This document shows positions 5,258-60,760 of a DNA stretch of 64,000 nt, piece after piece. The position numbers and the translations under genes were made by a program. Position 1 is the first letter of the stretch, and each line of letters begins with the position of its first letter. Source of the DNA: Candidatus Acididesulfobacter guangdongensis (GTDB lineage: Bacteria > SZUA-79 > Acidulodesulfobacterales > Acidulodesulfobacteraceae); the NCBI GenBank assembly GCA_004195045.1, contig SGBC01000004.1, positions 28,631 through 92,630 of the forward strand. The letters run 5' to 3'. The notes under the pieces were generated by a model. That model saw only the letters and a list, made by a program, of their open reading frames with translations. It did not search any database and was not told where the DNA came from.

Positions 5258-7084
5258 ATGGAATCTCAAAAACTCGGCGAAATTTTAGTAAAACACGGCA
5301 GTGTAAAAAAAGACGATATAAATAATGCTTTATTAATACAGGAAAAGATAAGAAATGGAATAAAAAAAGGCCAACAATTACAGGATGCTAAACTTGGAGA
5401 AATACTTGTTAAGAATAATATTGTTACCGCAAATCAGTTAGAACTGGCGCTTGAAGAACAGGGAAAAACAGGAGGCAGTATCGGTAGGCAGCTTTCAAAG
5501 CTAGGTTTCGTTAAAGATTCCGAACTTGTTTCGTTTTTATCAAAAGAGTTCGGCGCGGCTACCGTTAATCTTCTTTCCTCGGCAATACCGTCCGATGTTA
5601 TCAAATTAATTCCGCCGGATACTGCGTTAAAATATCATGTGGTTCCGTATAAAAGACAGGGCAATACTTTATATCTGGCAGTTTCTGATCCTACAAAGGT
5701 CACTGTGCTTGAGGATATTAAATTTTATACCGGACTTAATGTTGAAGTGGTACTTGCGGCGGAATCAGAAATAAATCAGGCGCTATCGACCTATTATAAT
5801 GCTTCAAGTATTTTGACTGAGCATAAAGACTATATTGATTCTATTTCTATTGAGGACACTAACGAAGAAATTGATATTTCAGAATTACAAAGGTCTTCTT
5901 CCGAAAAACCTATAATCCAATTTGTTAATAAAGTTATATCAGATGGAATTAGAAGAGGCGCAAGCGATTTGCATTTTGAACCATATGAAAATAATATACG
6001 CGTGAGATTCAGAATAGACGGAAAACTTAATGAAATCATGACAGTTCCGGGACAGCTGAAAAATGCTATAAGTTCAAGAATTAAAATTATGTCTCAAATG
6101 GACATAGCCGAAAGAAGAATGCCTCAGGACGGCAGAATAAAAGTCAGGGTAGAAAGTAAAGAAGTTGATATAAGGGTATCGTGCCTTCCCATATTGTACG
6201 GAGAAAAGATAGTTATGAGAATATTAGATAAGTCTTCTCTTCAGCTTGATATGAAAAAATTAGGATTTTCCGATAATCAGCTTAATGATTTTCAAGATGC
6301 TATTCATAAACCATACGGGATGATTTTAGTTACGGGACCGACCGGTTCAGGAAAAACAACCACTCTTTATAGCGCTCTGAGCGATTTAAATAAAAAAACC
6401 GTTAATATTTCTACGGCGGAAGACCCTGTAGAATATAATATTTACGGTATTAATCAGGTACAGATTAATGAAGATATAGGTTTGACGTTTGCTCAGGCGC
6501 TGCGTTCTTTTTTAAGACAGGACCCTGATATAATAATGGTAGGTGAGATAAGAGATTTAGAAACTGCGGAAATCGCTATAAAGGCTGCTTTAACAGGTCA
6601 TTTAGTTCTTTCAACTATTCATACCAATAATGCTGCGTCTACGATTTCCCGATTGATCAATGTAGGCGTTGAACCGTTTCTTGTGGCATCAAGCCTTAAT
6701 CTCGTAATAGCGCAAAGACTCATAAGAAAATTATGCACAGAATGTAAAGAACCATATATACCCGATGACAGGATGCTTCAAGGTTTCGGCTTTGAAGACG
6801 GCATAATAAAACGTAACGTATTGTATAAAGCTAAAGGATGTTCTGCCTGTATGAACACGGGATATAAGGGCAGGATTGCAATATATGAAGTGCTTACGGT
6901 AACCGATGACATTAAAGATTTAATTTATAAGAATGCAAATGAATTTGAAATTGAAAATATAGCCGTTAAAAACCATGGAATGATTACTTTAAGCGAATCG
7001 GCAAAAGAAAAATTTATCTCGGGCATAACCTCTATGGAAGAAATATTGCAATATCTTAAAACAAGTAATAATATAATTATATGA
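5258..7084 (+). CDS. pilB: type IV pilus assembly ATPase PilB (GspE family)
   Basis: Walker A VTGPTGSGKTTT, Asp/His boxes, tetracysteine CTECKE...CSACMNTG, and N-terminal T2SSE_N/MshEN-like repeats (KLGEILVK... twice). Confidence 0.9.
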   Translation: MESQKLGEILVKHGSVKKDDINNALLIQEKIRNGIKKGQQLQDAKLGEILVKNNIVTANQLELALEEQGKTGGSIGRQLSKLGFVKDSELVSFLSKEFGAATVNLLSSAIPSDVIKLIPPDTALKYHVVPYKRQGNTLYLAVSDPTKVTVLEDIKFYTGLNVEVVLAAESEINQALSTYYNASSILTEHKDYIDSISIEDTNEEIDISELQRSSSEKPIIQFVNKVISDGIRRGASDLHFEPYENNIRVRFRIDGKLNEIMTVPGQLKNAISSRIKIMSQMDIAERRMPQDGRIKVRVESKEVDIRVSCLPILYGEKIVMRILDKSSLQLDMKKLGFSDNQLNDFQDAIHKPYGMILVTGPTGSGKTTTLYSALSDLNKKTVNISTAEDPVEYNIYGINQVQINEDIGLTFAQALRSFLRQDPDIIMVGEIRDLETAEIAIKAALTGHLVLSTIHTNNAASTISRLINVGVEPFLVASSLNLVIAQRLIRKLCTECKEPYIPDDRMLQGFGFEDGIIKRNVLYKAKGCSACMNTGYKGRIAIYEVLTVTDDIKDLIYKNANEFEIENIAVKNHGMITLSESAKEKFISGITSMEEILQYLKTSNNIII

Positions 7085-7262: not shown

Positions 7263-8480
7263 ATGTCATCAATAGCAGATTTATTAAAAACTACCGTAGA
7301 TATGGGCGCTTCAGATTTGCATATAGCGGCGGGTTCGCCTCCCGTAATAAGACTGAGAGGTTCTCTTGCTCCCCTTAATTTTCCGTCGTTATCTCCTTCC
7401 GATACTCAAGGTCTTTGCTATAGCGTCATAACGGACGCGCAGAAGAAAAGATTTGAGGAGACGCACGAACTTGATTTTTCATTTTCACAGAAAGGAGTAT
7501 CGCGTTTCAGAGGCAACCTATATTTTGACAGAGGGTCGATTGCAGGCGCATTCAGGGTTATTCCTCACGCTATACCTTCAATAGACGCTTTAGGTTTGCC
7601 TCCAATAATAAAAGAAATTATAAAATCTCCGAGAGGTCTAATATTAGTAACCGGTCCGACCGGTTCCGGCAAAACTACTTCTCTGGCAGCTATGATAGAT
7701 TCTATAAATGCAACGAGACACGAACATATCATTACTATTGAAGACCCTATAGAATATATTTTTCAGCATAAATCATGTTTGGTCAATCAGAGAGAAGTGG
7801 GTCAGGATTCGTATAGCTTTGTAGAAAGTTTAAGACATATTTTAAGGGAAGACCCAGATGTAGTTCTGATAGGCGAAATACGGGATATGGAAACAATGGA
7901 AGCGGCATTGACTATAGCTGAAACAGGACATTTAACTTTTGGGACCCTGCATACTAATTCTGCCGTGCAGACTATTTCCAGAATTATAGACATATTTCCA
8001 TCAGACCAGCAGTCGCAGGTCAGGTCGTCATTATCGCTATCCTTAGTGGGTGTTATGTCTCAAACCCTTATTCCTAAAATAGATAATCTTGGCAGAATTT
8101 TGGCTGCCGAAGTTATGATACCTAATGCCGCTATAAGAAATTTAATCAGAGAAAATAAAATTCATCAAATATATTCTCAACTTCAGCTCGGACAAGAAAA
8201 ATACGGTATGCAAACTTTGAATCAGGCGCTTGCTTCGTTGGTGAACAACAGAATAATAAGCGAAACGGAAGCATATTCGCGCTCTTCGGACGTGGATGAA
8301 TTAAAACAGAATATTAATTCCGGTTTGATATCTAAGGGCGGTTCCTTAAATAATAATATTTCTTCGAATGTCAATAATAACGCAGGAACAAAAGGAACGC
8401 AGCAGCAAAATCAAAACGGCAGTTCTTTTAACAAAACTAACGACGGATTGTTTTCCGGGATTGATTTTGACAAATTATAG
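7263..8480 (+). CDS. pilT: twitching-motility retraction ATPase PilT, with an Asn/Gln-rich C-terminal tail
   Basis: ASDLHI, VTGPTGSGKTTS, GHLTFGTLHTNSA and the AIRNLIRE motif. About 54 extra low-complexity residues at the C-terminus. Confidence 0.9.
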   Translation: MSSIADLLKTTVDMGASDLHIAAGSPPVIRLRGSLAPLNFPSLSPSDTQGLCYSVITDAQKKRFEETHELDFSFSQKGVSRFRGNLYFDRGSIAGAFRVIPHAIPSIDALGLPPIIKEIIKSPRGLILVTGPTGSGKTTSLAAMIDSINATRHEHIITIEDPIEYIFQHKSCLVNQREVGQDSYSFVESLRHILREDPDVVLIGEIRDMETMEAALTIAETGHLTFGTLHTNSAVQTISRIIDIFPSDQQSQVRSSLSLSLVGVMSQTLIPKIDNLGRILAAEVMIPNAAIRNLIRENKIHQIYSQLQLGQEKYGMQTLNQALASLVNNRIISETEAYSRSSDVDELKQNINSGLISKGGSLNNNISSNVNNNAGTKGTQQQNQNGSSFNKTNDGLFSGIDFDKL

Positions 8481-40133: not shown

Positions 40134-40592
40134 TCAAATATCTATATTATTTATACCATTATTTATGCCGTCCAAATATGCTTGAAGGACAAATGAAGCA
40201 GCTATGGAATCAATAGCCTGTTTTCTTTTTTTTCTATTCACGTCTTTGTCTATTAAACTTCTTCTTGCTTGGGCAGTTGAAAATCTTTCATCGTAAGTAA
40301 TTATAGGAATGTCTTTGATTGGCAGGTTTTCAATAGTTTTTTTGAATTCACTTATGAATTTTTCAGTTTCAATAGAAAGCGATGACTGCTGTCCGCTGAG
40401 ACCGACAGGCATTCCGACAACCACTGCCGATACATTTTCGGCAACAATAATATCTTTTAGTTCAGCGGCTGATTTTTCAAGGTTTTCATTTATTATAAAC
40501 TTGCGCGGAAATGCGACAGCGCCTCTATCATCGCTTAAAGCTACGCCAATTCGTTTAAGTCCGTAATCAATACATATAGCTTTTTTATTCAT
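40134..40592 (-). CDS. ruvX: Holliday-junction resolvase-like nuclease RuvX (YqgF)
   Basis: ICIDYGLKRIGVALSD and DERFST motifs. Confidence 0.85.
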   Translation of the reverse strand: MNKKAICIDYGLKRIGVALSDDRGAVAFPRKFIINENLEKSAAELKDIIVAENVSAVVVGMPVGLSGQQSSLSIETEKFISEFKKTIENLPIKDIPIITYDERFSTAQARRSLIDKDVNRKKRKQAIDSIAASFVLQAYLDGINNGINNIDI

Positions 40593-41632
40593 TATGATGC
40601 TTCAAATCCAAGGTCGTTTATTAACTCAACATCTAATTCAGTATTTCTTCCGGAAGTTACTAAGTAATTTCCCAGAAGAAATCCGTTAGCTCCAGCCATT
40701 AAGGCGAATGGCTGTAATTGCCGTAAATTTAATTCCCTGCCTCCTTGCGCAAGTATGTTCTTTGACGGATTAATCAGGCGAAAGATAGAAATAGTCTTGA
40801 GACATTCCATAGGTGTTAAGTCGCGATTATTTTCCAACGCTGTCCCTTTAATTGGATTTAAAAAATTAATAGGAATATTGTCAACATCAAGCTCCTTTAA
40901 CTGTCTTGCCATTTTAATTCTGTCAAGACGAGATTCGCCCATACCTATTATAACGCCGGAGCATACTTTAAGTTTGGCATCTTTTGCTTTGTTTATTGTT
41001 TCAATATTATTTTTGTAAGAGTGTGTCGTACAGATATTGCCGAAGAAATCTTTACTGGTTTCAATGTTGTGATGAAAAATTTCCAATCCGTGAAATTTTA
41101 AATATTCCAAGTCGCCTTTTTCCATTAATCCCAAAGATGCGCATGCAGTGATTCCTATATCATCTTTAATAGTCTTAATAGCTTCGGCTATAATGGAAAG
41201 TTCTTTTTTGTCGCTTACCGACGTTCCGCTTGTGACTATGGAAAATTCATTTGCTCCGTTTTCTTTAGCGGTTCTGGCAGCATTAACTAATTCTTTTACC
41301 GGAAGAAGTTTATTTATTTTTTTATTAATTTTAGGTATTTTTGAAGATTGTCCGCAGAAAGCGCAGTCTTCTGAGCATAAACCCGTTTTTGCGCTGACGA
41401 TTGAACAAAAATTAATTTTGTTGCCTGTCCATTTTTCTTTAAGTTCCAGCGCAATAGAGAAAACAGCCAGCATCTCAGATTTGCTGCAATCATAAATAGA
41501 CAAAAGAATATCGTCTGGAATTTCTTTATTTTCGGAGATATAATTTCTTAATGTATCAGCTAAACCTTTATTGGCGGAAGATTGTTCTGAAACTTTAAAA
41601 ATGTCATCAGTTTTCAAATTCATGATTTTCAC
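40592..41632 (-). CDS. bioB: biotin synthase
   Basis: Radical SAM motif CSEDCAFCGQS and the BioB-typical C-terminal part (GANGFLLGNYLVTSG). Confidence 0.9.
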   Translation of the reverse strand: MKIMNLKTDDIFKVSEQSSANKGLADTLRNYISENKEIPDDILLSIYDCSKSEMLAVFSIALELKEKWTGNKINFCSIVSAKTGLCSEDCAFCGQSSKIPKINKKINKLLPVKELVNAARTAKENGANEFSIVTSGTSVSDKKELSIIAEAIKTIKDDIGITACASLGLMEKGDLEYLKFHGLEIFHHNIETSKDFFGNICTTHSYKNNIETINKAKDAKLKVCSGVIIGMGESRLDRIKMARQLKELDVDNIPINFLNPIKGTALENNRDLTPMECLKTISIFRLINPSKNILAQGGRELNLRQLQPFALMAGANGFLLGNYLVTSGRNTELDVELINDLGFEAS

Positions 41633-44027: not shown

Positions 44028-45194
44028 ATGCTTATTAGAGAACTTATTTCAAATGAAATAGAAAACATTAAGCTGAAAGGTTTTTATAGACAGCTCAATG
44101 AAAATAAAAACAATAATGCGATTATTAACTTATCGTCCAATGATTATCTTGGATTGGCTTATAATGCGGAAATAAAAAGAGCTGCAAAACAAATAATTTC
44201 TGCATATCCTCTGTCTAGCGCGTCGTCTCCTTTAATGTACGGCTATTTTATGCCGCATATTGATTTGGAAAACAAATTATGCAGCTTCAAAGGAGGATAT
44301 GAAAGATGTATTCTTTACCCGTCAGGCTATCAGGCAAATATGGGAGTAATCTCCGCTTTATCGGGAATATCGCTCAGTAAAACCTTTATAGCGTTTGATG
44401 AATTATCCCATGCGTCAATTGTTGACGGCGTATTGTGTTCAAAAGCAAAATTCAGAAGATTTAGGCATAATGATTCTGAGCATCTTGATAAAATATTAAA
44501 AAAATATAGTTCCTATGAAATAAAAATCGTTATAACAGAAGGCGTATTCAGTATGGATGGCGATATTGCCGATCTGCCGGATATTATAAATGTATCAAAA
44601 GATAATAACGCAATTACGATTCTTGACGATGCCCACGCTACCGGAACTATAGGGTCGCTTGGCGGAGGCAGCTGCAATTTTTACAGCGACAACGGCGTAA
44701 AACTGAAACCGGATGTTATGGTCGGTACGCTTGGTAAAGCTCTTGCTTCTGAGGGAGCTTTTGTTCTTTCTGATAATTTAATTATTGACTATTTAATAAA
44801 TAAAAGCAGACCGTATATTTTTTCTACGGCAATATCTCCTGTTGCTGCAGGTATCGCGCTGCAGGCGTTAAATATTATTGAAAATAAACCTGAATTAGTT
44901 ATTAAATTACAGATGATGTCTCAAAATATCAGGATTGTTTTAAAAAATAGCGGATTAAATATTCTGAATTCAAATACGCATATAATACCCATATTGATAG
45001 GCGATGAAATAAAGGCTGCAGAAATAGAAAAGACATTCATTAATAAAGGTATACTTCTAAAAGCGGTTAAATATCCTACTGTTGCCAAAGGCAGCGCCAG
45101 GTTGCGTTTAAGTGTAAATGCTGGGCTTAGCGATGCCGATGTCAAATACGTTTTAGATAATCTAACAGGATTGATTAAACAAATAGGTCATTAA
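44028..45194 (+). CDS. bioF: 8-amino-7-oxononanoate synthase (alpha-oxoamine synthase family)
   Basis: SNDYLGL, FSMDGD, DDAHATG and the PLP-lysine context GTLGKALAS. Adjacent to the BioC-like methyltransferase. Confidence 0.8.
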   Translation: MLIRELISNEIENIKLKGFYRQLNENKNNNAIINLSSNDYLGLAYNAEIKRAAKQIISAYPLSSASSPLMYGYFMPHIDLENKLCSFKGGYERCILYPSGYQANMGVISALSGISLSKTFIAFDELSHASIVDGVLCSKAKFRRFRHNDSEHLDKILKKYSSYEIKIVITEGVFSMDGDIADLPDIINVSKDNNAITILDDAHATGTIGSLGGGSCNFYSDNGVKLKPDVMVGTLGKALASEGAFVLSDNLIIDYLINKSRPYIFSTAISPVAAGIALQALNIIENKPELVIKLQMMSQNIRIVLKNSGLNILNSNTHIIPILIGDEIKAAEIEKTFINKGILLKAVKYPTVAKGSARLRLSVNAGLSDADVKYVLDNLTGLIKQIGH

Positions 45195-45246: not shown

Positions 45247-46281
45247 ATGATAAATAAAAATAAAATCAATAAAATAGATAAAAACAAAGTTAAAAAAAAT
45301 TTTTCAAATTCTCATCAATATGATAATGCAATATCGTATCATAGCATCACCCTTGAAATGATTGCGGACGACATATTATCTTTTTTTATATCGCGGCATA
45401 GTGCAGTATTTATTAATAATGACGGCTGGTTAAATAGATTAAACATTCTTGATGCAGGCTGCGGAACGTGCAACGGACTTTTGCATATTAAAAACAAAAT
45501 AAATAATAACAATATAAAGAATTTTGATTTTATCTATCTGGGGGTTGACATAGCATTAGGAGCATTAAAAAGAGGGCAGTCAAAAGTTAAAGCCGATGAA
45601 ACTGGCGGTGCTTATTTGTGTTGCGCTGATTGTGAAGAAATGCCGGTAAAGAATAAAATAATGAATGTTGTTTTTTCTAATATGGTTTTGCACTGGCTAA
45701 ATAAACCTTTACATTTTATTAAATCAGTTAAAAACAGTTTAAACTTAGATAGTGAAAATTTATTTATCTGCTCATTTCTTTCCGAAGGTACGTTAAAAGA
45801 ACTTAATCTGTGCTATGATAAATATAAATATTCGGGCGGCAATACTGCGAAAAATGTTGCCCTCCATAAATTCCCCGATGCCTGTTATATTAAAGAGCTA
45901 TTAATTTCCGAAGGTTTTGTCGTAGAAGAATTTAAAATTGTAGAACATAAAGAATATGCGAAAACAGCTTTTGAATTATTTAAGAGGATAAATCTTATAG
46001 GAGCTAAAAATTCTACAAATAATTTTATTATAAAAGATGATTTAAATAAAACTAAACCTGAAATAAAAAACACAGAATTATGTAAAAATAACGCAAGCGT
46101 AAATAATCAGCCTGCATCTATTGGCGATCATGCCGATAATATTAGAAGCGAGCCTATTTTTTCACGATATTCAATCCTTAAAAAAGTTCTGAAAGATTAT
46201 GAAAATACATACACTGCAGATGGGGATAATGTTTACGCCTCTTATTATTTAACTTATATAAGAGCAAAACTTGCAGATTAA
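45247..46281 (+). CDS. class I SAM-dependent methyltransferase, BioC-like with a long C-terminal extension
   Basis: SAM motif ILDAGCGTCNG and VFSNMVLHWL. Follows bioF. About 80 aa longer than typical BioC. Confidence 0.6.
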   Translation: MINKNKINKIDKNKVKKNFSNSHQYDNAISYHSITLEMIADDILSFFISRHSAVFINNDGWLNRLNILDAGCGTCNGLLHIKNKINNNNIKNFDFIYLGVDIALGALKRGQSKVKADETGGAYLCCADCEEMPVKNKIMNVVFSNMVLHWLNKPLHFIKSVKNSLNLDSENLFICSFLSEGTLKELNLCYDKYKYSGGNTAKNVALHKFPDACYIKELLISEGFVVEEFKIVEHKEYAKTAFELFKRINLIGAKNSTNNFIIKDDLNKTKPEIKNTELCKNNASVNNQPASIGDHADNIRSEPIFSRYSILKKVLKDYENTYTADGDNVYASYYLTYIRAKLAD

Positions 46282-46403
46282 ACTTTTATTGTAAAAACTT
46301 TTATTATAATAGACGTTAAATAAAACCTGCTAATTACGATAATTTGACCTGAAGGTTTGGGATTAAACTTTTATTGCATTTTATTGGAATAGATGTTAAA
46401 AAA

Positions 46404-46460
46404 ATCCCCGATAGCTTACATGCGTTATAACTGCATATAAGTTATCGGGGATTTTATTAT
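46404..46460. terminator. long bidirectional intrinsic terminator between convergent bioC-like gene and pal
   Basis: An approximately 20-bp stem, ATCCCCGATAGCTTACATGCG / TGCATATAAGTTATCGGGGAT, with one mismatch and two G-U pairs. Loop TTATAAC. A-run upstream and T-run downstream. Confidence 0.75.
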
Positions 46461-46490
46461 TATTTACTTCTTTTTTTATTTTAAAATAAT

Positions 46491-47051
46491 TTATTTTGAA
46501 GCAGGTACGAAATGGTCTCTTCTGTTTATAGCATAACAAACTCTCGTATGAGCTCTGCATATTGGTTTTTCTTTACCAAAGCTAATTGTTTTAAGTCTGT
46601 TTGCGCTTATGCCAAGGTCTTCTAAATAAGCCTTAGCAGCATTTGCTCTTCTCCAACCGAGCGCTAAGTTATAACTCTCTGAACCTCTTCTATCGCAGTT
46701 GCCCTGAATCTGAATGGCAGTATCGCGATGATATTTTAAATATATCGCATCTTTTTTCAAAATCATTTTGTCTAACGGAGTAAGAATGGATTTGTTAAAC
46801 GCAAAATGAATGTTATTGCCGTTAGAGGCAATATTGTAAGATGCAAGCCATGGATACTTTCTTAAATAAGAGTTGACTTTTTGAGAAACGACAGGTTGTG
46901 TCGGCTGCTGAATAGCTACTGCCGGTTTCTTTGCAGGCGGCAAGGCGCTTGAAGATGTTTTAGTCACTTTTGGAGCGCAGCCGGAAAGAACGGCAGATAC
47001 TCCGAATACTAGTCCAAGAATAGACAAGCCTATCTTTGTTTTTTTGTTCAT
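46491..47051 (-). CDS. pal: peptidoglycan-associated lipoprotein (Pal/OmpA-C family)
   Basis: Lipobox LSGC and an OmpA-like domain (IHFAFNKSIL...IQGNCDRRGSESYNLALGWRRANAAKAYL). Confidence 0.85.
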   Translation of the reverse strand: MNKKTKIGLSILGLVFGVSAVLSGCAPKVTKTSSSALPPAKKPAVAIQQPTQPVVSQKVNSYLRKYPWLASYNIASNGNNIHFAFNKSILTPLDKMILKKDAIYLKYHRDTAIQIQGNCDRRGSESYNLALGWRRANAAKAYLEDLGISANRLKTISFGKEKPICRAHTRVCYAINRRDHFVPASK

Positions 47052-47218
47052 GTTACTCTCTCCTTAAAAAATAAAATTAAATAAATTTTGTTTAAATAAA
47101 AAAATATAAAATCATCTTTTTTCATTATACAATTTATATATATATCATTATTTAAAAAAAAATCAATATATTTTTTATAGACGGTTGAATTATTTTTTTT
47201 ATGAGATAAACTTTAATT

Positions 47219-48268
47219 ATGGATAGTTATGCCGATAATAAAAAAAATGAATTTTATATTCAGTGGCATTTTATGGACAGCTGTAATCTAAGATGTATTC
47301 ATTGCTATCAGAATGATTATCTATTTAAAGAGCCCGACTTAAATAACTTAAATATTATTTTTCGCAAACTTGATGATGCTTTGGCAAAATGGAAAATGAA
47401 CGGTTTTGTTTCATTGACGGGAGGAGAACCGTTCCTGAGTCCTTCATCTTTATTTTATGTGGCTGAATTAATAGAAAATTCGCCAAATTTTCAAAATGTT
47501 GCCATATTATCAAACGGTACGTTAATAGGCGAAAATATTATTAAAGAAATTAAAAGGTTTAAAAAAATTACGGAGATTCAAATATCTATAGACGGACCTA
47601 ATGCTCAAATACATGAATCCATAAGAGGAAAGGGTACGTTTTTGAAAACGGTTGAAACTGTTAAAAAATTAGTCGGTGCAGGATTAAAAACTTCTATCAT
47701 GTTTACGGTGCATAAAAAAAATATGGATTATGCCGAGGATATGCTGTATTTAGCTAAAGAGCTTAAAGTAAATGCCTTAACTGTTGAAAGAATGACAACA
47801 ATGAATGAAGAAGAAAAAAAAGAATTTTTTATAAATCCTTATGATTTAGAAAGAATTTATAAAAACATATATGAAAAATCTAAAGTAATATTTGCAGAAT
47901 CTGCGACAAGACTTATAACTTCCAGACCGTTATGGAATCTGGTAGATGAAAATGCAGGCGGATTTTGCCCGGTAGGGCTTTCTTCGGTCTGCATTCTGCA
48001 TGACGGTACCGTGCTTCCCTGCAGAAGGCTATATTTGCCGCTGGGAAATATTATTGAAGAAGGTCTCTTTAAAATATGGTATGGTTCAAAAATTTTATGG
48101 GATATGAGAAATAAGAAAAATATTTCGGATAATAGCGGCGCTCATACGCAATCTGCATGTTCGGATATTAATTGTTCCCATTTTAAAAGATGCGGAGGAT
48201 GCAAGGCGATAAGCTATTATTATCATGGAAATATACACGAAAAAGATCCTCAATGCTGGCTCAGCTGA
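47219..48268 (+). CDS. radical SAM/SPASM-domain peptide-modifying enzyme (putative RiPP maturase)
   Basis: CX3CX2C at C22/C26/C29 (SCNLRCIHCY) and a GGEP SAM motif. The C-terminus has 8 Cys in a SPASM-like arrangement (FCPVG..VCILHDGTVLPC...ACSDINCSHFKRCGGC...PQC). Confidence 0.85.
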   Translation: MDSYADNKKNEFYIQWHFMDSCNLRCIHCYQNDYLFKEPDLNNLNIIFRKLDDALAKWKMNGFVSLTGGEPFLSPSSLFYVAELIENSPNFQNVAILSNGTLIGENIIKEIKRFKKITEIQISIDGPNAQIHESIRGKGTFLKTVETVKKLVGAGLKTSIMFTVHKKNMDYAEDMLYLAKELKVNALTVERMTTMNEEEKKEFFINPYDLERIYKNIYEKSKVIFAESATRLITSRPLWNLVDENAGGFCPVGLSSVCILHDGTVLPCRRLYLPLGNIIEEGLFKIWYGSKILWDMRNKKNISDNSGAHTQSACSDINCSHFKRCGGCKAISYYYHGNIHEKDPQCWLS

Positions 48269-48381
48269 TTTTATAAAACAATACAGTTAATGAGTACATT
48301 AATGCCGGTTTAACTGATTTTATAAAAAAATACGGTTATACGGTTAGTCGGTACAATTAATTAAGGGATGGTTCGCTGATT

Positions 48382-48660
48382 ATGAATGTTAAATATAAAC
48401 TTTTACCTCAATATATTCTGCATAATGACGGAACGGACAAGTATATGCTATTTGATACGCAGACAGGCGGCATATACAAATTAAATGCCGTATCATTTAA
48501 TATTTTGTCCCTTTGCAGCGGTGAATACACAAGCGATGAAATAAAAGATGAGATCTTAAAAATGTTTGATGTTGACTTAGATGTTTTAACTGAAGATTTT
48601 AATGATATTATTACAAAATTTCTAAATGAAAATATAATTTCTTGCCCAACTTCACCATGA
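48382..48660 (+). CDS. PqqD-family peptide chaperone (RiPP recognition element)
   Basis: 92 aa. YMLFDTQTGGIYKLNAVSFNILSLCSGEYTSDEIKDEILKMFDVDLDVLTEDFNDIITKFLNENII has the PqqD length and pattern (beta strands followed by a helical bundle). Confidence 0.75.
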   Translation: MNVKYKLLPQYILHNDGTDKYMLFDTQTGGIYKLNAVSFNILSLCSGEYTSDEIKDEILKMFDVDLDVLTEDFNDIITKFLNENIISCPTSP

Positions 48661-48889
48661 TTATCAGCAGCATATTGTACTATAATTTATGGGGCAATAA
48701 AAATGCCTGTGAAGACTACAAAATAAAAAATAAAATGTAATAATATTAATGTGTTGTAATATAATTTTAGAATAACAAAAGTGGTGAAGTTGGGCTAAAA
48801 CTCCTAAAAAAATGTTTTTTTGGGATTAATGAATTTTTTTATAATTTTTCTTAAAATAACGTCAGTTAAAATTAAGGAGGTGAAAAAAC

Positions 48890-48994
48890 ATGAAAACCAA
48901 TTACGAAAAGCCGATTTTGGAAAATCTGGATGCCGAAGAATTTTATTCAACTTTGATGGAAAACTATGGAATTAACGATTCGTGCTATTCTTGA
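48890..48994 (+). CDS. candidate 34-aa RiPP precursor peptide MKTNYEKPILENLDAEEFYSTLMENYGINDSCYS
   Basis: Hand-translated; below the ORF-track size cutoff. TAAGGAGGTG ends 7 nt before the ATG. Followed by a strong hairpin plus T-run (49034-49104). Same strand as, and directly after, the rSAM and PqqD genes. Confidence 0.55.
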   Translation: MKTNYEKPILENLDAEEFYSTLMENYGINDSCYS

Positions 48995-49033
48995 AAATCC
49001 TGCAAGTGAAATGTGCAGTTGGCACATAAGAAT

Positions 49034-49104
49034 TAAGCGCCTTATTCTTGAAATATTAAAAAAATATAAAAAGAAAAAGGCGCTTATTTTATTTATTTTT
49101 TTTA
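49034..49104 (+). terminator. intrinsic terminator after the candidate precursor peptide
   Basis: TAAGCGCCTTATTCTT (49034-49049) pairs with AAGAAAAAGGCGCTTA (49071-49086) with one mismatch. Followed by TTTTATTTATTTTTTTT. Confidence 0.7.
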
Positions 49105-49204
49105 ATTTTCATTGATTATACTGTATTGATTTGAAATATTGCGTAATTATTGCAGCAATAGTTTAGTTGAAGTTTTATGCATATTAAAATATAAAATACT
49201 TATA

Positions 49205-49254
49205 TTATCTTATCTTATCTTATCTTATCTTATCTTATCTTATCTTATCTTATC
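49205..49254. repeat. pentanucleotide microsatellite (TTATC)x10
   Basis: Ten perfect units counted from 49205. The array ends 2 nt from the gatD stop codon (49257-49259, minus strand). Confidence 0.95.
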
Positions 49255-49256
49255 TT

Positions 49257-50039
49257 TTATATTGTTTTGCCGATTATTTTTTGTAAATCTTTTATATCTT
49301 TTCTTGCATTAATTTCAAAATTATTATCAATATTGATATTATTTTTTGCAGTTATATCATCAAGCCCGATTTTATATTTATTTTTAACGGCTGTGTCTAT
49401 AAGCATATCGCAAAAAATAAAATTTTTCGGCAAAATACTTCCATGCATATATGTACCGTAGAAATTATTTGCGACAGCCCCCTCGCTTTTATCTGCGCCG
49501 TTGTTGCCGTATCCAGCCAACACTTTTCCGAAACTCTGCTGCGATTCAGATAAGTACGTTCTCCCCCCGTGATTTTCAAATCCTACAATTATAATATCGC
49601 CGAAAATAGAGGCTATATTTCCTGTTAATCGGGGTTTTTCCGGTTCAGCTATTGTATGTCCGCTAAAAATAGAAATGCCTTCTATTATTTTATTATCTGC
49701 AGCTTTGTAGTAATTTAGCAGAAGCTGATAGCCACCGCAAATTGAAAGCATTATTTTGCCTGCATCTTTAGCATCTTTAAGCTCATTTTTCTTGTTAATT
49801 GTTAAATCTTTATAAATCAAAGCCTGTTCGGAATCCTGCCCTCCGCCGATAAACATAATGTCCGTTTTGTTTATGTCTATTTTTTCGCCTATAGTAGACG
49901 ATTTAATGTCAACGTTTATTCCATAAAGTGAGGCTCTGTACTTAAAATATAGAATATTTCCTCTATCCCCGTATATATTCATAATCTCAGGATAAAGGTC
50001 AACGGCTTTCAATTTTAGCTTCAGCGAATTATTATTCAT
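49257..50039 (-). CDS. gatD: lipid II isoglutaminyl synthase, glutaminase subunit GatD (CobQ-type GATase)
   Basis: Motif-by-motif match to S. aureus GatD as I recall it: LYPEIMNIYGDRGNI, FIGGGQDSEQAL, ICGGYQLL (catalytic Cys), RLTGNI, VGFENHGGRTY, GYGNNGADKSEG, GTYMHGSILPKN. Confidence 0.88.
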   Translation of the reverse strand: MNNNSLKLKLKAVDLYPEIMNIYGDRGNILYFKYRASLYGINVDIKSSTIGEKIDINKTDIMFIGGGQDSEQALIYKDLTINKKNELKDAKDAGKIMLSICGGYQLLLNYYKAADNKIIEGISIFSGHTIAEPEKPRLTGNIASIFGDIIIVGFENHGGRTYLSESQQSFGKVLAGYGNNGADKSEGAVANNFYGTYMHGSILPKNFIFCDMLIDTAVKNKYKIGLDDITAKNNINIDNNFEINARKDIKDLQKIIGKTI

Positions 50040-50235
50040 TTTTGTGTAGATAGAATTTAGTGAAATTAGATAAAAAGCAAAGCCTGAATTTAGTTTAATT
50101 CATCATTAAATAATTGCCCGTTATTTTTTGATATTGTTTTATTAGTTTGTTTATCTGTTTAATAAGTTATGACATTGTGATAAAATTGTACCGACTGTTG
50201 CGCTATAATTAATTTTATTTTATTAATAAACTAAG

Positions 50236-50315
50236 ATTGCGTCTATTGTAACATAATTTAATGCTTTAAATTAAAATTGCATTGATTATACCATAATTCG
50301 ATGCTTTAGCTTAAA
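50236..50315. repeat. degenerate 40-bp tandem duplication in the gatD upstream region
   Basis: 50236-50275 and 50276-50315 both begin ATTGC and end TTAAA. 31 of 40 positions match by hand alignment. Confidence 0.7.
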
Positions 50316-50468
50316 TAGATTAAATTGTTTATTGCATAATATAACTTAAATATACATTATAAGTTATAAATATAAAAAATATAAATAAAATATAAATATC
50401 GCACCTGCTTTCAGATATAACTTAAATAAAATAATAAAATAAAAATAATTAAAAAAGGAAAAATTATT

Positions 50469-50885
50469 ATGAAGCTGATACACACCGCTATAAAAACCGT
50501 AAATTTAGACAAATCTTTAGCCTTCTATACCGATATATTAAATATGCATATTAAAGAAAAAAAATATATTGAAGCGCATAAAGTAACGCTGGTTTTTTTA
50601 CAAGATGATGCATCAAATTTTGAAATAGAACTTATTTTTGAAGCAGATGCTGAAAATGAAAAAACAGAAAATGTAAATTATGGGCACACAAATGGCGCCG
50701 ATTGCAGTTTTGCCCATTTTGCTTTTATGACAGATAATATAGACAGAGATTTTATCGCCATGAAAGAAAAAGGAGCCGTATTTATGCGCGAACCATTTTA
50801 TTCGCTTGATAAAAGTATGAAATTAGCATTTATTAAAGATCCTGACGATAATACGATAGAATTGATACAATATTTTAAATTATAA
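50469..50885 (+). CDS. VOC-family protein (glyoxalase I / methylmalonyl-CoA epimerase-like)
   Basis: HTAIKTVNLDKSLAFYTDILNM...FEIELI...HFAF...DPDDNTIELI, the typical paired beta-alpha-beta-beta-beta pattern with metal ligands. Confidence 0.7.
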   Translation: MKLIHTAIKTVNLDKSLAFYTDILNMHIKEKKYIEAHKVTLVFLQDDASNFEIELIFEADAENEKTENVNYGHTNGADCSFAHFAFMTDNIDRDFIAMKEKGAVFMREPFYSLDKSMKLAFIKDPDDNTIELIQYFKL

Positions 50886-55420: not shown

Positions 55421-56992
55421 ATGTATTTAAATATAAAAAATAAAATTGAAATCATTCTGTATAAATTTTTTAAACTGATTTTAGTTGCAGTTTTCAAAAG
55501 AAACGGGGATGTATTACCGATTTATTTGCTAAAAAAATTAGATAAAAATTTAATTGATAATTTTGCAAGAGATATAAATGCTATAAATATTCCGGTAATA
55601 TTTGTCACAGGAACTAACGGAAAAACTACAACCGCCAATTTAATAGCTTCAGGTTTAAATAAAGCCGGTATGAAAGTTTGTTCAAACATCAACGGAGCAA
55701 ATATGACAAACGGCATTTTCGGGTCTATTATTGAGCGATATTCATTTAATGGCAAATTTAATGCGGATATTATGGTAATTGAAACAGACGAGAAGGTTTT
55801 TCCATATATTATTTCAAAAATAAATCCGGATCTTGTAGTAATTACTAATTTTTATAGAGACCAGTTAGACAGATACGGAGAAGTAAATACTACAATGCTC
55901 AGTATTAAAAAATCAATACAGTCTTTAAAAACTTATCCTGTTTTAATTTTGCCTTCCAATGAACCTCTCGCGTCTTTTGTGGGATTTAATACTAAAAATA
56001 AAAAGTTTTATTTTAACGTTAAATCAGAGAAAAAAGAATTTAATAATGATTACAACAACAATAATAATGACAATAACAACGGTAAAAGCAATAATGACAA
56101 ATTAAATACATTAAATGCTTTAGGTAGCGATTTAGATGACCATAACTTATGTAAACGCGAAAAAGAAAATAGCAATATCGCTTTAACCGATGCAATCTCC
56201 TGCCCTCAATGCGGAAATATATTGTCCGCTTATTTTAACGTTCATTATACTATGATAAATTATTGCTGTAATTATTGCGGATATAAAAACGCTGCTGCTG
56301 ATGTAGAGGCAGAATCGTCCGGCGATGATTATATAACTTTTAATTTTAAAAATATGGAAGAATTTAATTCTAAGGTAAAAAGCAAAGGATTCTATTTTAA
56401 GCCTTCAATACAGGGTTATTATAACATATTAAACTATATGGCAGCCTTTCTGGTGCTAAAATTTTATTGCATAGACGACGAGATAATAAAAAAAACATTT
56501 GAAAATTATTCCACAAAATTTGGCAGGTCTTTTAAGAAAATAGTTCAAGGAATAGAGTGCAGCATAGATTTAGTAAAAAATCCATCAGGATTCAACAATG
56601 TATTAGAAAAGATATTTGAAAAAGATGATTGCATTAATGCTTTATTTGCTTTTTCCGACAGAGATGCGGACGGCAGGGATATTTCATGGATTTGGGACGT
56701 AAATTTTGAAAAATATATTAATAAATTTAATAATATTGCAATTACGGGGCTTAGACCGTACGATATGGCTATAAGGCTTAAAACTGCCGGAATAGATATA
56801 AAGAAAATAAAAGTAAATCATAATGTTAAAAAAGCGTTTAACGGAATTATAAATGACAGATATAATTACGGCAATGCCGTAGACGGCAGCTATAACTGCT
56901 GTAATTACAGCAATAATAAAAAAAAATTAAATAAACTCTATATATTTTCAACTTATACAGAACTTTCAAATTTAGAAAAAATTATTGTATAA
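55421..56992 (+). CDS. murT: lipid II isoglutaminyl synthase, ligase subunit MurT (Mur-ligase fold plus DUF1727)
   Basis: VTGTNGKTTTANLI, VIETDE, ITNFYRDQLDRYGE, a Cys4 ribbon (CPQCGN...CNYCGY), and DADGRDISWIWDVNFEK (DUF1727). All parallel S. aureus MurT. Confidence 0.88.
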   Translation: MYLNIKNKIEIILYKFFKLILVAVFKRNGDVLPIYLLKKLDKNLIDNFARDINAINIPVIFVTGTNGKTTTANLIASGLNKAGMKVCSNINGANMTNGIFGSIIERYSFNGKFNADIMVIETDEKVFPYIISKINPDLVVITNFYRDQLDRYGEVNTTMLSIKKSIQSLKTYPVLILPSNEPLASFVGFNTKNKKFYFNVKSEKKEFNNDYNNNNNDNNNGKSNNDKLNTLNALGSDLDDHNLCKREKENSNIALTDAISCPQCGNILSAYFNVHYTMINYCCNYCGYKNAAADVEAESSGDDYITFNFKNMEEFNSKVKSKGFYFKPSIQGYYNILNYMAAFLVLKFYCIDDEIIKKTFENYSTKFGRSFKKIVQGIECSIDLVKNPSGFNNVLEKIFEKDDCINALFAFSDRDADGRDISWIWDVNFEKYINKFNNIAITGLRPYDMAIRLKTAGIDIKKIKVNHNVKKAFNGIINDRYNYGNAVDGSYNCCNYSNNKKKLNKLYIFSTYTELSNLEKIIV

Positions 56993-57798: not shown

Positions 57799-58563
57799 AT
57801 GAACGTGTTATCGTCAAAATCTTTTATTGTTTCCATAAAAAAAATGAATGAAGCAGACTTATTAATAGTCTATGTTACCGAAGATTATGGAAAAATCGTC
57901 TGTTTTGCCAATAATGCAAGAAAAAGCAAAAAGAGGTTTCTTGGAAAACTTGAACCCGCTATGCTGACAAGTATAAAATTTTATGAAAAAGCGGGAATGT
58001 CGCTGGCAATACTTTATGAAGTAGATTCTGTCGAAGAATATAAAAATATCAGAAAAAATATAAATGCCTACATGTCTATATCAAAACTTCTGGAAATTAC
58101 AAAAGCGCTTGTTCCTGAAAAAGACAAAAATATAATGATTTTTAATTTGCTAAGGGACGTATATATTAGTTTGAATGACGCGGTCGGAAACGATTGCACG
58201 GAAGATATCATCTTAAAGCATGAGCTTTATTTTATTTCTAATTTTTTAAAGTATATCGGCATATTTCCCAATTTTACGACATGCACATTATGTTCGCAGA
58301 AAAATGCAGATAATTATTTTACTTTCAGCATAGCAAAAGGCGGAGCAGTCTGCGGCAATTGCGCCAAAACGGTAAAAACAATAAATTTGCCTGTAAGCGC
58401 CGTAAAAATTATTAATCTCATGGCAAATTCCAGTACTTCGATAATTTCAAAATTAAATGCCAAAGACTATGTCCTGAGAGACTGCATTAACTTTTTAGAA
58501 AATATTTTATCCTCTTATGCAGGAAATTCATTTAAATCTTTCAATCTTAATAAAAAATATTAA
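57799..58563 (+). CDS. recO: DNA repair protein RecO
   Basis: N-terminal OB-fold pattern (SFIVSIKKMNEADLLIVYVTEDYGKIVCFANNARKSKKRF) and a zinc finger (CTLCSQ...CGNC). Confidence 0.8.
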   Translation: MNVLSSKSFIVSIKKMNEADLLIVYVTEDYGKIVCFANNARKSKKRFLGKLEPAMLTSIKFYEKAGMSLAILYEVDSVEEYKNIRKNINAYMSISKLLEITKALVPEKDKNIMIFNLLRDVYISLNDAVGNDCTEDIILKHELYFISNFLKYIGIFPNFTTCTLCSQKNADNYFTFSIAKGGAVCGNCAKTVKTINLPVSAVKIINLMANSSTSIISKLNAKDYVLRDCINFLENILSSYAGNSFKSFNLNKKY

Positions 58564-58583: not shown

Positions 58584-60026
58584 ATGGATAGCTTAAACAA
58601 ATATTTAAGAAAATTTCCGAAAATTCAATTAATTTTGCAGGATGAAGGTGTCAAAAAATTAATAGACAAATATTCTTATAATGCCGTAAAAGATAAATTA
58701 GAAGAAATATTGTCAGAAGAAAAAGAGAAAATAAAAATAAAAATAAATTTTAAAGATGATGCAGTACTTGAAGACAATATTTTTAAAATAGAGCGCTTCG
58801 CATTTTTGCTGAATGATTATTTTAATAACTTTTCATTCAGTCTTAAAAGGGTTATTAACGGAACGGGCGTAGTTGTTCATACCAATCTTGGCAGGTCTAT
58901 CTTGCCGAAAGCGGCAGTTGAAAATGTGTTTAAAATATCTTCTTCATATTCAAATCTTGAATTCAATCTTGAAGAAGGAATGAGGGGTAAAAGATATTCC
59001 CATGTGGAAACATTGCTTAACAGAATTTTAAACTGTGAAGCGGCTATTGTAGTTAATAATAATGCTGCTGCCGTGTTTATGGCGTTAAATACTTTTGCCG
59101 CAGGAATCAAAAAAGAAGTTATAGTTTCGAGAGGCGAGCTTGTTGAAATAGGCGGTTCGTTTAGAATTCCGGATATAATGAAAGCGTCAGGAGCGCAGCT
59201 TATCGAAGTCGGAACTACAAATAAAACTAAAATTAATGATTACGAATCAGAAATAAACGAAAATACGGCGCTGCTGCTTAAAGTTCATCACAGCAATTTT
59301 AAAATGACGGGATTTGTTCACGAGGTAAATTCTAAAGAGCTTGTAGAAACAGGAGAAAAATACAATATTCCTGTTATGGAAGATCTCGGTTCAGGAAGTT
59401 TTATCAAATTTGAAAAATTCGGTCTTCCAAAAGAGCCTACCGCTCAGGAAGTTATTAACGCAGGGATTGATATAGTAACATTCAGCGGAGACAAACTTCT
59501 TGGCGGACCGCAGGCAGGTATTATTGCAGGCAAAAAAGAGTATGTTGATTTAATTGCAAAAAACCCGTTAAACAGGGCTTTCAGGATTGACAAAATGACT
59601 CTGGCGGCGCTTGAAGCAGTCTTGTTTGAATATTTAGATATAAATAACGCTATCAAGAACATTCCGACCCTCCGCCTGCTTTCACAAAATATTTTAGAAA
59701 TAAAAAAAAGAGGGTTAAAACTTTTAAATAAGGTTAAAAAGCTTGAAAGCACCTATAAAATCATGTATACTTTTAACATTATAGAAGATTTCAGTATTGT
59801 AGGAGGCGGAGCAATGCCTGATTACGAAATGAAAACATATTGCCTGTCCGTTACTCATAAATTTTTTGCGGCGGAAAAATTAAGCGAAATATTCAGAGGT
59901 TTACAAATACCTGTTGTCGGTAAAATCAAAGACGGTAAATTCCTGATCGATTTAAGGACTGTTTTAGATGACGATATAAACGATATAATCGGAAATTTCA
60001 TAAAAGTTTCTCAGATGTCAAATTAA
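58584..60026 (+). CDS. selA: L-seryl-tRNA(Sec) selenium transferase
   Basis: VINGTGVVVHTNLGRS and the PLP-lysine motif FSGDKLLGGPQAGII. Confidence 0.9.
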   Translation: MDSLNKYLRKFPKIQLILQDEGVKKLIDKYSYNAVKDKLEEILSEEKEKIKIKINFKDDAVLEDNIFKIERFAFLLNDYFNNFSFSLKRVINGTGVVVHTNLGRSILPKAAVENVFKISSSYSNLEFNLEEGMRGKRYSHVETLLNRILNCEAAIVVNNNAAAVFMALNTFAAGIKKEVIVSRGELVEIGGSFRIPDIMKASGAQLIEVGTTNKTKINDYESEINENTALLLKVHHSNFKMTGFVHEVNSKELVETGEKYNIPVMEDLGSGSFIKFEKFGLPKEPTAQEVINAGIDIVTFSGDKLLGGPQAGIIAGKKEYVDLIAKNPLNRAFRIDKMTLAALEAVLFEYLDINNAIKNIPTLRLLSQNILEIKKRGLKLLNKVKKLESTYKIMYTFNIIEDFSIVGGGAMPDYEMKTYCLSVTHKFFAAEKLSEIFRGLQIPVVGKIKDGKFLIDLRTVLDDDINDIIGNFIKVSQMSN

Positions 60027-60157: not shown

Positions 60158-60760
60158 TTGCTTATGCTATCTTCCAGTGTATTAGTTCTAAATAAATCCT
60201 TTTTGCCGGTTCACGTAACTTCTCTTAAGAGGGCTTTTATACTTTTATATCAAGGAGCTGCTAAGGCTGTTGATGAAAATTACCGCACATTCACTTTTGA
60301 TTCATGGAAAGATATTTCTGTTACAGACGGCGCTCAATCAGTAGGTCTCGTGGATAGGTTCATTAGAGTGCCGAGGGTAATTCTTCTTACAGGGTATGAT
60401 AAAGTACCTAAAAGATATATTAAATTTTCGAGAGCAAATATATTTTTCAGGGATAAAAATAAATGCCAGTACTGCGGAAAAGAATTTAAAAAAAACGATT
60501 TAAATTTAGACCATGTAATTCCCAGAACGTACGGCGGAATATCTTCATGGGAAAATGTCGTATGCAGCTGCATTAAATGCAATAGAATTAAGGGCGGCAG
60601 AACGCCGGAAGAAGCGGGAATGAATTTAATACGGAAGCCTAGAAAACCGGAATGGTCTCCTTATTATCATATATCTTTGACAAATATATTATATAAAGAA
60701 TGGATGCCGTTTCTTAATATTGTTGATAGCGCCTACTGGCACGTAGAACTTGAAGAGTAA
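60158..60760 (+). CDS. HNH endonuclease-family protein
   Basis: CQYCGK...LDHVIPRTYGG...WENVVCSCIKCNRIKG (HNH with two CxxC pairs). Alternative ATG start at 60164. Confidence 0.8.
   Translation: MLMLSSSVLVLNKSFLPVHVTSLKRAFILLYQGAAKAVDENYRTFTFDSWKDISVTDGAQSVGLVDRFIRVPRVILLTGYDKVPKRYIKFSRANIFFRDKNKCQYCGKEFKKNDLNLDHVIPRTYGGISSWENVVCSCIKCNRIKGGRTPEEAGMNLIRKPRKPEWSPYYHISLTNILYKEWMPFLNIVDSAYWHVELEE

Follow-up and report, generated by a model that had tools for sequence, protein, structure and literature searches.

A 2026 census of prokaryotic selenoproteins contains a single precursor family for peptides that are ribosomally synthesized and then modified post-translationally (RiPPs), namely 'selenobacteriocin' TIGR04081, which comprises SbtA, the partner of the radical S-adenosylmethionine (rSAM) enzyme SbtM (TIGR04082), in Geobacter and Desulfobacteria. 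SbtM catalyzes two C-beta oxidations that yield a 5-thio/seleno-oxazole (PMC9204691, PMC11002830), and its natural substrate has a UGA-encoded selenocysteine (Sec, U) with a Sec insertion sequence (SECIS) element immediately downstream (PMC11002830). In this study, we analyzed a 64,000-nucleotide stretch of DNA, hereafter the window, from 'Candidatus Acididesulfobacter guangdongensis' (contig SGBC01000004.1, positions 28,631–92,630), a member of an acid-mine-drainage lineage. The window contains a compact cassette of three co-directional genes, which code for an rSAM/SPASM enzyme, a PqqD-family protein, and a short peptide that has an in-frame UGA near its 3' end.

The cassette resembles SbtM/SbtA in that an rSAM/SPASM enzyme accompanies a short precursor with a putative UGA-encoded Sec and a hairpin just downstream, and the hosts of both systems are anaerobic sulfate or metal reducers. 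However, the cassette enzyme does not reach the SbtM cut-off. Only positions 198–515 of the SbtM model were aligned, and thus the enzyme lacks the approximately 200 N-terminal residues of SbtM, with a separate PqqD protein present instead. The precursor also differs from SbtA: it has no match to TIGR04081, contains one proposed Sec instead of two, and places it in the context Y-S-U-K within CxxUxxC, not in SGUG.

Several other systems share individual features with the cassette. The mycofactocin (MftA/B/C) and pyrroloquinoline quinone (PQQ; PqqA/D/E) systems likewise combine an rSAM/SPASM enzyme and a PqqD-type protein with a peptide of about 30–40 aa that is modified near the C-terminus, and they too have no dedicated exporter. 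The cassette differs from the former in its low MftC score and the absence of mftD/E/F and from the latter in the absence of pqqB/C and of PqqE from the best 25 NCBIfam models for the enzyme, and its core is Cys/Sec-based, unlike the cores of both. Of the lasso-peptide B1 proteins such as TbiB1 and TfuB1, leader complexes of TbiB1 are the best structural matches of the PqqD-family protein, and the precursor has the leader motif bound by B1 proteins, YxxPx[L/F/I/V], but the cassette includes neither a lasso cyclase nor a B2 protease and the partner is an rSAM protein. Sactipeptide and ranthipeptide synthases (SkfB, AlbA, CteB, and PapB) act on Cys-bearing substrates and include the closest solved structures (template modeling (TM) scores of 0.65–0.69), although they mostly have a fused N-terminal recognition domain and no conserved acceptor is visible in the cassette peptide. 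The C-terminal 'star' selenoproteins (UXX-star and KCU-star) have Sec within a few residues of the C-terminus, as proposed for the peptide, which leaves only the stop codon or the region past it for the SECIS element; these proteins have, however, not been described as precursors of RiPPs with their own maturase and recognition element, and the peptide matches no NCBIfam model. ACGX (TIGR04340), the best-scoring model for the enzyme, differs in that the precursor has no ACGX repeats. The first-pass annotation, which was made from the sequence without database searches, had regarded the peptide as neither PqqA-, MftA-, nor SCIFF-like, and we agree: it ends in KSCK, contains neither the GVY end nor E-x3-Y, and matches no SCIFF-type or other precursor family.

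We consider it likely that the three genes form a RiPP cassette in which the leader of a 39-residue precursor with a UGA-encoded Sec is bound by the PqqD-family protein and its Cys/Sec core is modified by the rSAM/SPASM enzyme. If true, only one other kind of ribosomal peptide that contains selenium and is matured by an rSAM enzyme would be known, and selenium would have entered ribosomal natural products repeatedly, in families unrelated in their details. Public gene calls end such precursors at the UGA, and selenopeptides are therefore probably under-counted. A system of 39 residues and three genes can be tested easily.

Probable selenocysteine reading of the precursor gene

The peptide gene had been described in the first-pass annotation as a 34-codon open reading frame (ORF) with a Shine-Dalgarno site and its own terminator. 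The Shine-Dalgarno site and a folded terminator were found, whereas the end of the gene had to be revised. Reading past the TGA gives S-C-Y-S-TGA-K-S-C-K-TGA, and the product is most likely a 39-aa selenopeptide precursor, MKTNYEKPILENLDAEEFYSTLMENYGINDSCYS-U-KSCK, with the core S-C-Y-S-U-K-S-C-K (C32-x-x-U35-x-x-C38). The peptide, which had been described as not a Cys-rich sactipeptide, would thus not be Cys-poor, as the core would contain two Cys and one Sec.

Related loci (labeled L and a number) were fetched from genomes and metagenomes. The encoded peptides fall into three classes, A–C, which are described below; the window peptide belongs to class A. The TGA is present in all eight intact class-A short orthologues (the window, L002, L003c, L005, L164, L168, L169, and L172), each of which continues past it in the same frame with K-[S/E]-C-K, plus one extra K in L164. 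In this extension, the codons for K, C, and K differ only by the synonymous changes AAA/AAG and TGC/TGT, while the second codon encodes Ser (TCC) or Glu, the latter with synonymous GAG/GAA variation. The second stop codon varies among TGA, TAA, and TAG. The UGA column is occupied by a Cys codon in L170 (GSCYSCKGCK), L003a (NSCCSCKSCK), and L003b (NSCRTCRACF). The all-Cys class-A precursor of L170 is encoded at 6346–6498 (+), and L003 has three precursor genes, two with Cys (4824–4979 and 5748–5867, both +) and one with UGA, around one maturase gene.

Upstream of the TGA, seven class-A orthologues have 34 codons each. Substitutions among them number 180, 118, and 393 at the first, second, and third codon positions, respectively, which indicates that the small ORF is translated under purifying selection. 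The AGGAGGTGA portion of the Shine-Dalgarno region, 5–6 nt from the start codon, is identical in 7/7 orthologues compared.

Counted from the U of the UGA, a SECIS-like hairpin begins 19 nt downstream in the window, just past the true stop codon, and 17–22 nt downstream in the orthologues. Among seven sequences, pairing was retained in 100% of the cells, four of the six base pairs showed compensatory changes, and shifted registers failed. The apical loop is AG[G/U]U[U/G] and thus includes the G/U looked for in a SECIS element; it resembles the GC-AGGUC-UGC apex of the SECIS element of E. coli fdhF. The hairpin occurs in all of the UGA genes and is absent from the three Cys-encoding genes, and the 48-nt regions fold with −7 to −15 kcal/mol in the former vs −2 to −4 kcal/mol in the latter. 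In the entire 64 kb, only one other hairpin of SECIS-like form was found, and it has no upstream TGA.

The window also encodes SelA, 9.6 kb from the cassette (PF03841, 504 bits; equivalog TIGR00474, 575 bits vs a cut-off of 268), and the organism would therefore make Sec-tRNA and decode Sec. The selA gene lies between recO and an HNH endonuclease gene, with no adjoining selB.

A conserved UGA, Cys homologues, a downstream hairpin, and Sec machinery are the standard criteria for bacterial selenoproteins (PMC13188914). Given the invariant TGA, the conserved extension, the Cys homologues, the covarying hairpin restricted to UGA genes, and, from the Sec machinery, SelA, we consider it very probable that UGA35 is decoded as Sec.

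Another UGA-containing gene of the superfamily was found in L175 (595–789, +). The codon of the third core Cys of this class-C precursor is exchanged for TGA (…FCIQCSG-TGA-HGCR-stop), with a hairpin following, which may represent a second, independent replacement of Cys by Sec. The L175 contig is 1.5 kb long and does not include a maturase gene. At the window locus, a 49-codon ORF at 48966–49115 (+), a called gene in the public record (L001 7748–7897), extends over the last part of the precursor gene, the SECIS-like hairpin, and the terminator; it is most likely spurious.

Probable leader recognition by the PqqD-family protein

The assignment of the 92-aa protein to the PqqD family, proposed in the first-pass annotation, was confirmed by PF05402 (39.1 bits vs a cut-off of 23.4), while the score for the PqqD equivalog TIGR03859 was 19 bits vs a cut-off of 46. 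Its sequence shows 100% identity to that of a protein annotated in a metagenome-assembled genome of 'Candidatus Acididesulfobacter guangdongensis'. The AlphaFold2 (AF2) model (predicted local distance difference test (pLDDT) score of 91) has a PqqD-type winged-helix fold. The best matches of this model in the PDB were TbiB1–leader complexes (TM 0.75–0.78, root-mean-square deviation of 2.1 Å, 27–28% identity), followed by TfuB1 and PqqD.

Discrete lasso-peptide recognition elements and the recently described LppB bind the motif [Y/W]xxPx[L/V/I/F/A] (PMC13381572). The leader of the small peptide contains Y5-E-K-P8-I-L10, which corresponds to YxxPxL. The Tyr and Pro of this motif, a downstream Phe, and the first core Cys are invariant across all relatives found, in all classes. 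Recognition of the precursor leader by the 92-aa protein through YxxPxL is thus well supported by analogy with these binding proteins. The PqqD gene adjoins the rSAM gene in 26 of the 27 peptide-bearing loci.

The radical SAM/SPASM enzyme

As had been noted in the first pass, the 349-aa enzyme has CX3CX2C at C22/C26/C29, GGEP (residues 68–71), and eight Cys in the C-terminal part (positions 250, 258, 268, 314, 319, 325, 328, and 346). C250, C268, C314, C319, C325, C328, and C346 are invariant in 21 homologues, whereas C258 is not, and the seven-Cys SPASM motif for two auxiliary clusters is present. Seven conserved Cys for two [4Fe-4S] clusters would leave one iron site open. In thioether-forming maturases, the open iron site of the auxiliary cluster binds the substrate chalcogen (PMC10177961), and by analogy the corresponding site of the cassette enzyme probably binds the core thiolate or selenolate.

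The enzyme scored above the Pfam cut-offs for Radical_SAM (PF04055; 80.7 bits vs 29.5) and SPASM (PF13186; 33.2 bits vs 21.5) but reached no cut-off of the curated NCBIfam families. The best match was ACGX (120 bits vs a cut-off of 400), followed by AhbD (116 vs 500, with the model matched only in part), SbtM (107 vs 350), GeoRSP (106 vs 400), NirJ2 (96 vs 500), WgkB (92 vs 650), StsB (84 vs 625), MftC (TIGR03962; 82 vs 265), PapB (78 vs 340), NirJ (75 vs 515), and AhbC (73 vs 650). The models for AlbA, SkfB, StsB, and PapB gave 60–84 bits vs cut-offs of 300–850. Membership of a heme-pathway or anSME clade, which the first-pass annotation had named as an outcome that would speak against a peptide maturase, was not indicated: the AhbC, AhbD, and NirJ scores were far below their cut-offs, and no anSME model was among the matches listed. 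The AF2 model (pLDDT 85) was closest to the folds of SkfB, CteB, SuiB, and anSME in the PDB (TM 0.65–0.73), in agreement with a sequence-profile search of the PDB. In total, 926 rSAM homologues were found at E ≤ 1e-10.

Proposed maturation and chemistry

In the pathway that we propose, the hairpin 19 nt past UGA35 would direct SelB-dependent insertion of Sec into the 39-residue precursor, and if selenium ran short, translation would yield a 34-mer with SCYS at its end. The PqqD-type protein would bind the YxxPxL leader, as the lasso-peptide B1 proteins do, and would hand the core S-C-Y-S-U-K-S-C-K to the rSAM/SPASM enzyme. SAM would be cleaved at the C22/C26/C29 cluster, a core thiolate or selenolate would probably be ligated at the open iron site of the auxiliary cluster, and the 5'-deoxyadenosyl radical would abstract hydrogen, with modification of Cys/Sec residues. 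The domain content and the conserved, co-occurring precursor support the first-pass reading of the locus as a peptide-maturation cassette, in which the enzyme would modify this peptide.

With regard to the reaction, an SbtM-like oxidation to thio/seleno-oxazoles is possible, and we favor it tentatively. To our knowledge, SbtM is the sole enzyme that acts on a natural Sec precursor. It is also the best-scoring experimentally characterized peptide maturase in NCBIfam for the three classes (107, 138, and 172 bits), and these two points, together with a core in which only Cys/Sec is invariant and no acceptor is conserved across the classes, are the reasons for this preference. Furthermore, if Cys was replaced by the costly Sec at least twice, with L175 as the second case, a chalcogen that stays chemically active makes most sense; an oxazole product would leave it free for metal binding or redox chemistry. 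Two findings weigh against this assignment: the SbtM score is barely higher than that of WgkB and lower than those of ACGX and AhbD, as well as below its own cut-off, and the nearest solved structures are the thioether-forming SkfB and CteB.

Those structures, nearest by both sequence and fold, rather suit a sactipeptide- or ranthipeptide-type synthase with the same mode of recognition, which would join the S/Se atoms of C32, U35, and C38 to carbon in another residue to form thio/seleno-ether rings. On Cys peptides, rSAM/SPASM maturases most often form thioethers, and PapB and Tte1186 accept Sec and form selenoethers in vitro (PMC10177961). The open auxiliary-cluster site implied by the seven conserved Cys is also as expected of thioether-forming enzymes. 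We leave part of the probability to reactions of other kinds and rank ring formation, although somewhat unlikely, as a close second to the oxazole, since the AlbA, SkfB, StsB, and PapB models score below SbtM, the core Cys are the only invariant residues superfamily-wide, with no acceptor conserved across classes, and a costly Sec placed in an inert selenoether would have no obvious selective advantage. A reaction at Tyr as in PQQ or mycofactocin, or a Cys-Tyr link, was rejected, since relatives have Cys, Arg, or His at the position of Tyr33.

No peptidase or exporter gene was found within about 5 kb of the cassette, and the class-A loci are all without proteases, exporters, and additional tailoring enzymes. 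The absence of a peptidase and an exporter reported in the first-pass annotation therefore holds for the locus and the whole class-A branch; more distant relatives have additional tailoring enzymes and sometimes ABC transporters. Without an attached protease or exporter, the product may stay leader-attached inside the cell or use housekeeping functions, and it may be an intracellular cofactor, as the first-pass annotation suggested. As for its role, we speculate about metal handling or redox chemistry in the metal-rich acidic habitat; the strong conservation of the core would fit a conserved physiological role of this kind better than an arms-race antibiotic. Oxidative enzymes dependent on multinuclear non-heme iron (MNIO enzymes) make copper-binding bufferins and methanobactins. 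A more far-reaching proposal, to which we give rather little credence, is that the cassette represents, in minimal form and with selenium, a widespread and so far uncharacterized RiPP superfamily of strict anaerobes in which rSAM enzymes turn closely spaced Cys/Sec residues (CxxUxxC, CxQCSSCHGCR, and WCFGCTNCNCN) into thio/seleno-oxazole-type ligands, as an oxygen-independent counterpart of the MNIO systems; the product would be an intracellular or secreted, metal- or redox-active selenopeptide of acid-mine-drainage sulfate reducers.

A superfamily of Cys-rich precursors in anaerobes

The first-pass annotation called the cassette an orphan. Instead, it is the minimal branch of an extensive superfamily, as yet without a name, of Cys-rich precursors in anaerobes: 717 proteins were found at E ≤ 1 in a set of 5.8 billion proteins, with 278 representatives at 50% identity. 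These peptides have no informative name ('hypothetical protein' at most), and no peptide class, U-to-C versions included, has a match in Pfam or NCBIfam (NCBIfam E ≤ 10). The cassette is an anchor for this superfamily, which comprises several hundred precursors at least and lacks a Pfam or NCBIfam description. Full-text literature searches with the core motifs returned nothing relevant, and the two genome papers on Acidulodesulfobacterales mention neither Sec nor radical SAM.

The three classes follow the rSAM tree, which indicates co-diversification across phyla. Class A has the core S-C-x-x-[C/U]-x-x-C-x (rSAM identity to the window enzyme, 56–92%), class B has WCFGC[T/S]NCNCN (42–51%), and class C has CxQCS[S/G/A]CHGCR (31–38%). 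The precursors occur in bacterial and archaeal anaerobes, and their cores are unusually invariant and rich in Cys/His, with only the Cys/Sec positions invariant across the superfamily. A conserved small ORF at homologous loci, on which the first-pass annotation had made its proposal depend, was found. With the peptide profile, the precursor lay directly after the PqqD gene in 29 fetched loci at first count, with more in later-fetched loci, and the rSAM, PqqD, and peptide genes were found together in 26–27 loci.

Class B and C loci often have conserved extra genes. A prenyltransferase/squalene-cyclase-like alpha/alpha-toroid protein of about 290 aa is encoded in 14 loci and an AsnB-like amidotransferase in 8 loci. 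Further genes code for an unknown protein of 600 aa, a protein of 1100 aa with a metallo-beta-lactamase fold, a fusion of amidohydrolase and GNAT, another rSAM enzyme, a methyltransferase, and, in L171, ABC transporters. Such genes lie at L007 7505–11030, L008 4617–9294, L088 3234–6620, L166 7673–12753, and L171 1998–4481, and no named NCBIfam system is matched by any of them.

The cassette of the Acididesulfobacter lineage stays beside pal, bioB, and the bioF- and bioC-like genes, and gatD, queF, and murI are near. The same position is found in L168, L170, and L172, whose rSAM enzymes are 58–62% identical to that of the window, and its maintenance at this level of divergence indicates vertical retention. 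Outside this lineage, the neighbors differ.

FmdB-family zinc-ribbon genes (TIGR02605) lie beside the cassette in L003 (3987–4247, −) and L004 (7367–7573, +), and their products end in …EAIACGKT[S/D]G.FG. The ACGK in this ending recalls the ACGX peptides linked to the best-scoring rSAM model. FmdB-type proteins were dropped as candidates for a second substrate, as they are absent from the window and the other loci.

Other readings of the locus

If the UGA were a plain stop, the product would be a 34-residue peptide with a single Cys, ending in S-C-Y-S, and the hairpin would be part of the terminator. Both the mechanically derived ORF and the gene in the public record stop at the TGA, and TGA is the stop codon of 12 of the 45 long ORFs of the window (the others being 30 TAA and 3 TAG). 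Further points count against decoding of the UGA as Sec. No Rfam SECIS model matches the hairpin, including in a focused scan of 48975–49050; a Pfam scan of the 16 larger ORFs of the window showed neither selB nor selD; and ARAGORN found no tRNA, and hence no tRNA-Sec, in the 64-kb window or in ten class-A loci. The hairpin follows the stop codon, whereas most bacterial SECIS elements lie within the coding sequence, although families of C-terminal 'star' selenoproteins are known (PMC13188914), and its covariation comes from only seven related sequences. Termination at the TGA is nonetheless improbable. It would not account for a TGA that is invariant in eight orthologues despite heavy third-position substitution while the next stop varies, for following K, C, and K codons that change only synonymously, with S/E variation at the second, or for Cys at the same column in paralogues whose genes have no hairpin, and SelA is encoded on the same contig.

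Accepting Sec at this position, one may still ask whether the cassette is a remnant of a larger class B- or C-type cluster that yields no functional product. The alpha/alpha-toroid, AsnB-like, second rSAM, and amidohydrolase-GNAT proteins and the ABC transporters of distant relatives are missing here, and parts have been lost in some class-A genomes. In L163 (A. diazotrophicus; 7350–7835), the rSAM and PqqD genes have no peptide gene nearby; in L173 (3517–3544), from a metagenome-assembled genome, the rSAM gene stands alone; and in L004 (7055–7814), the PqqD gene is truncated and the peptide is frameshifted, with the last Cys replaced by Tyr. These losses detract from our reading, as they suggest that the cassette is useful but dispensable. 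Decay at the window locus is, however, very improbable: the peptide is under strong purifying selection, the enzyme retains all cluster ligands, the position beside pal and the bio genes is kept in several species at 58–62% rSAM identity, and a costly Sec codon is maintained together with its hairpin.

Finally, although AhbD is the second-best NCBIfam match, an AhbD/NirJ-type small-molecule enzyme of tetrapyrrole metabolism with an incidental PqqD gene and small ORF as neighbors is hardly credible, given the low and partial AhbD match, the lack of adjacent heme-pathway genes, and the fact that, across phyla, the enzyme co-occurs and co-diversifies with both the peptide and the PqqD gene.

Genomic neighborhood

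The features of the locus are listed in Table 1. ORFs were found at 47219–48268, 48382–48660, and 48890–48994 (all +), the positions of the three co-directional units that the first-pass annotation had placed between pal and gatD, and the public contig record shows an identical arrangement of the cassette and its flanks.

Table 1. Positions of the cassette genes, RNA elements, and neighboring genes in the window
Feature	Position	Strand	Remarks
Radical SAM/SPASM peptide maturase gene	47219..48268	+	349 aa, no fused recognition domain
Discrete PqqD-family RiPP recognition element gene	48382..48660	+	92 aa
Shine-Dalgarno AAGGAGGTGA of precursor gene	48874..48883	+	6 nt before ATG
Precursor peptide gene	48890..49009	+	39 codons plus stop
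In-frame UGA	48992..48994	+	Proposed Sec35 codon
SECIS-like hairpin	49011..49027	+	Stem AUGUGC/GCACAU (6 bp), loop AGUUG
Long hairpin AAGCGCCUU...AAGGCGCUU, then U-run	~49033..49104	+	RNA fold; probable intrinsic terminator of cassette
OmpA/Pal-type gene (pal)	46491..47051	−	Cassette flank
GATase_3 (gatD-type) gene	49257..50039	−	Cassette flank
selA, L-seryl-tRNA(Sec) selenium transferase gene	58584..60026	+	PF03841, TIGR00474; outside cassette
bioB	40592..41632		Biotin-pathway-like
bioF-like aminotransferase gene	44028..45194		Biotin-pathway-like
bioC-like methyltransferase gene	45247..46281		Biotin-pathway-like
murT	55421..56992	+	Mur_ligase_M + MurT_C
recO	57799..58563		Next to selA
HNH endonuclease gene	60158..60760		Next to selA

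The long hairpin after the peptide gene folds with −31 kcal/mol (z = −4.46). A strict terminator scan listed nothing after the peptide gene, the loop of this hairpin being too long for the scan, and an Rfam scan of 46000–50500 gave no SECIS or riboswitch match.

The biotin-pathway-like genes near the cassette recur at the cassette in L168, L170, and L172; no functional link between them and the cassette was found. The gatD and murT genes, which are usually paired, are about 5 kb apart on opposite strands in the window. A pentanucleotide microsatellite that looks perfect, (CTTAT) × 11.6, occupies 49199–49256, the stretch that separates the 3' end of gatD from the cassette terminator. A 40-nt tandem repeat (2.2 copies, 77% match) lies at 50227–50315 in an AT-rich spacer upstream of a glyoxalase-family gene.

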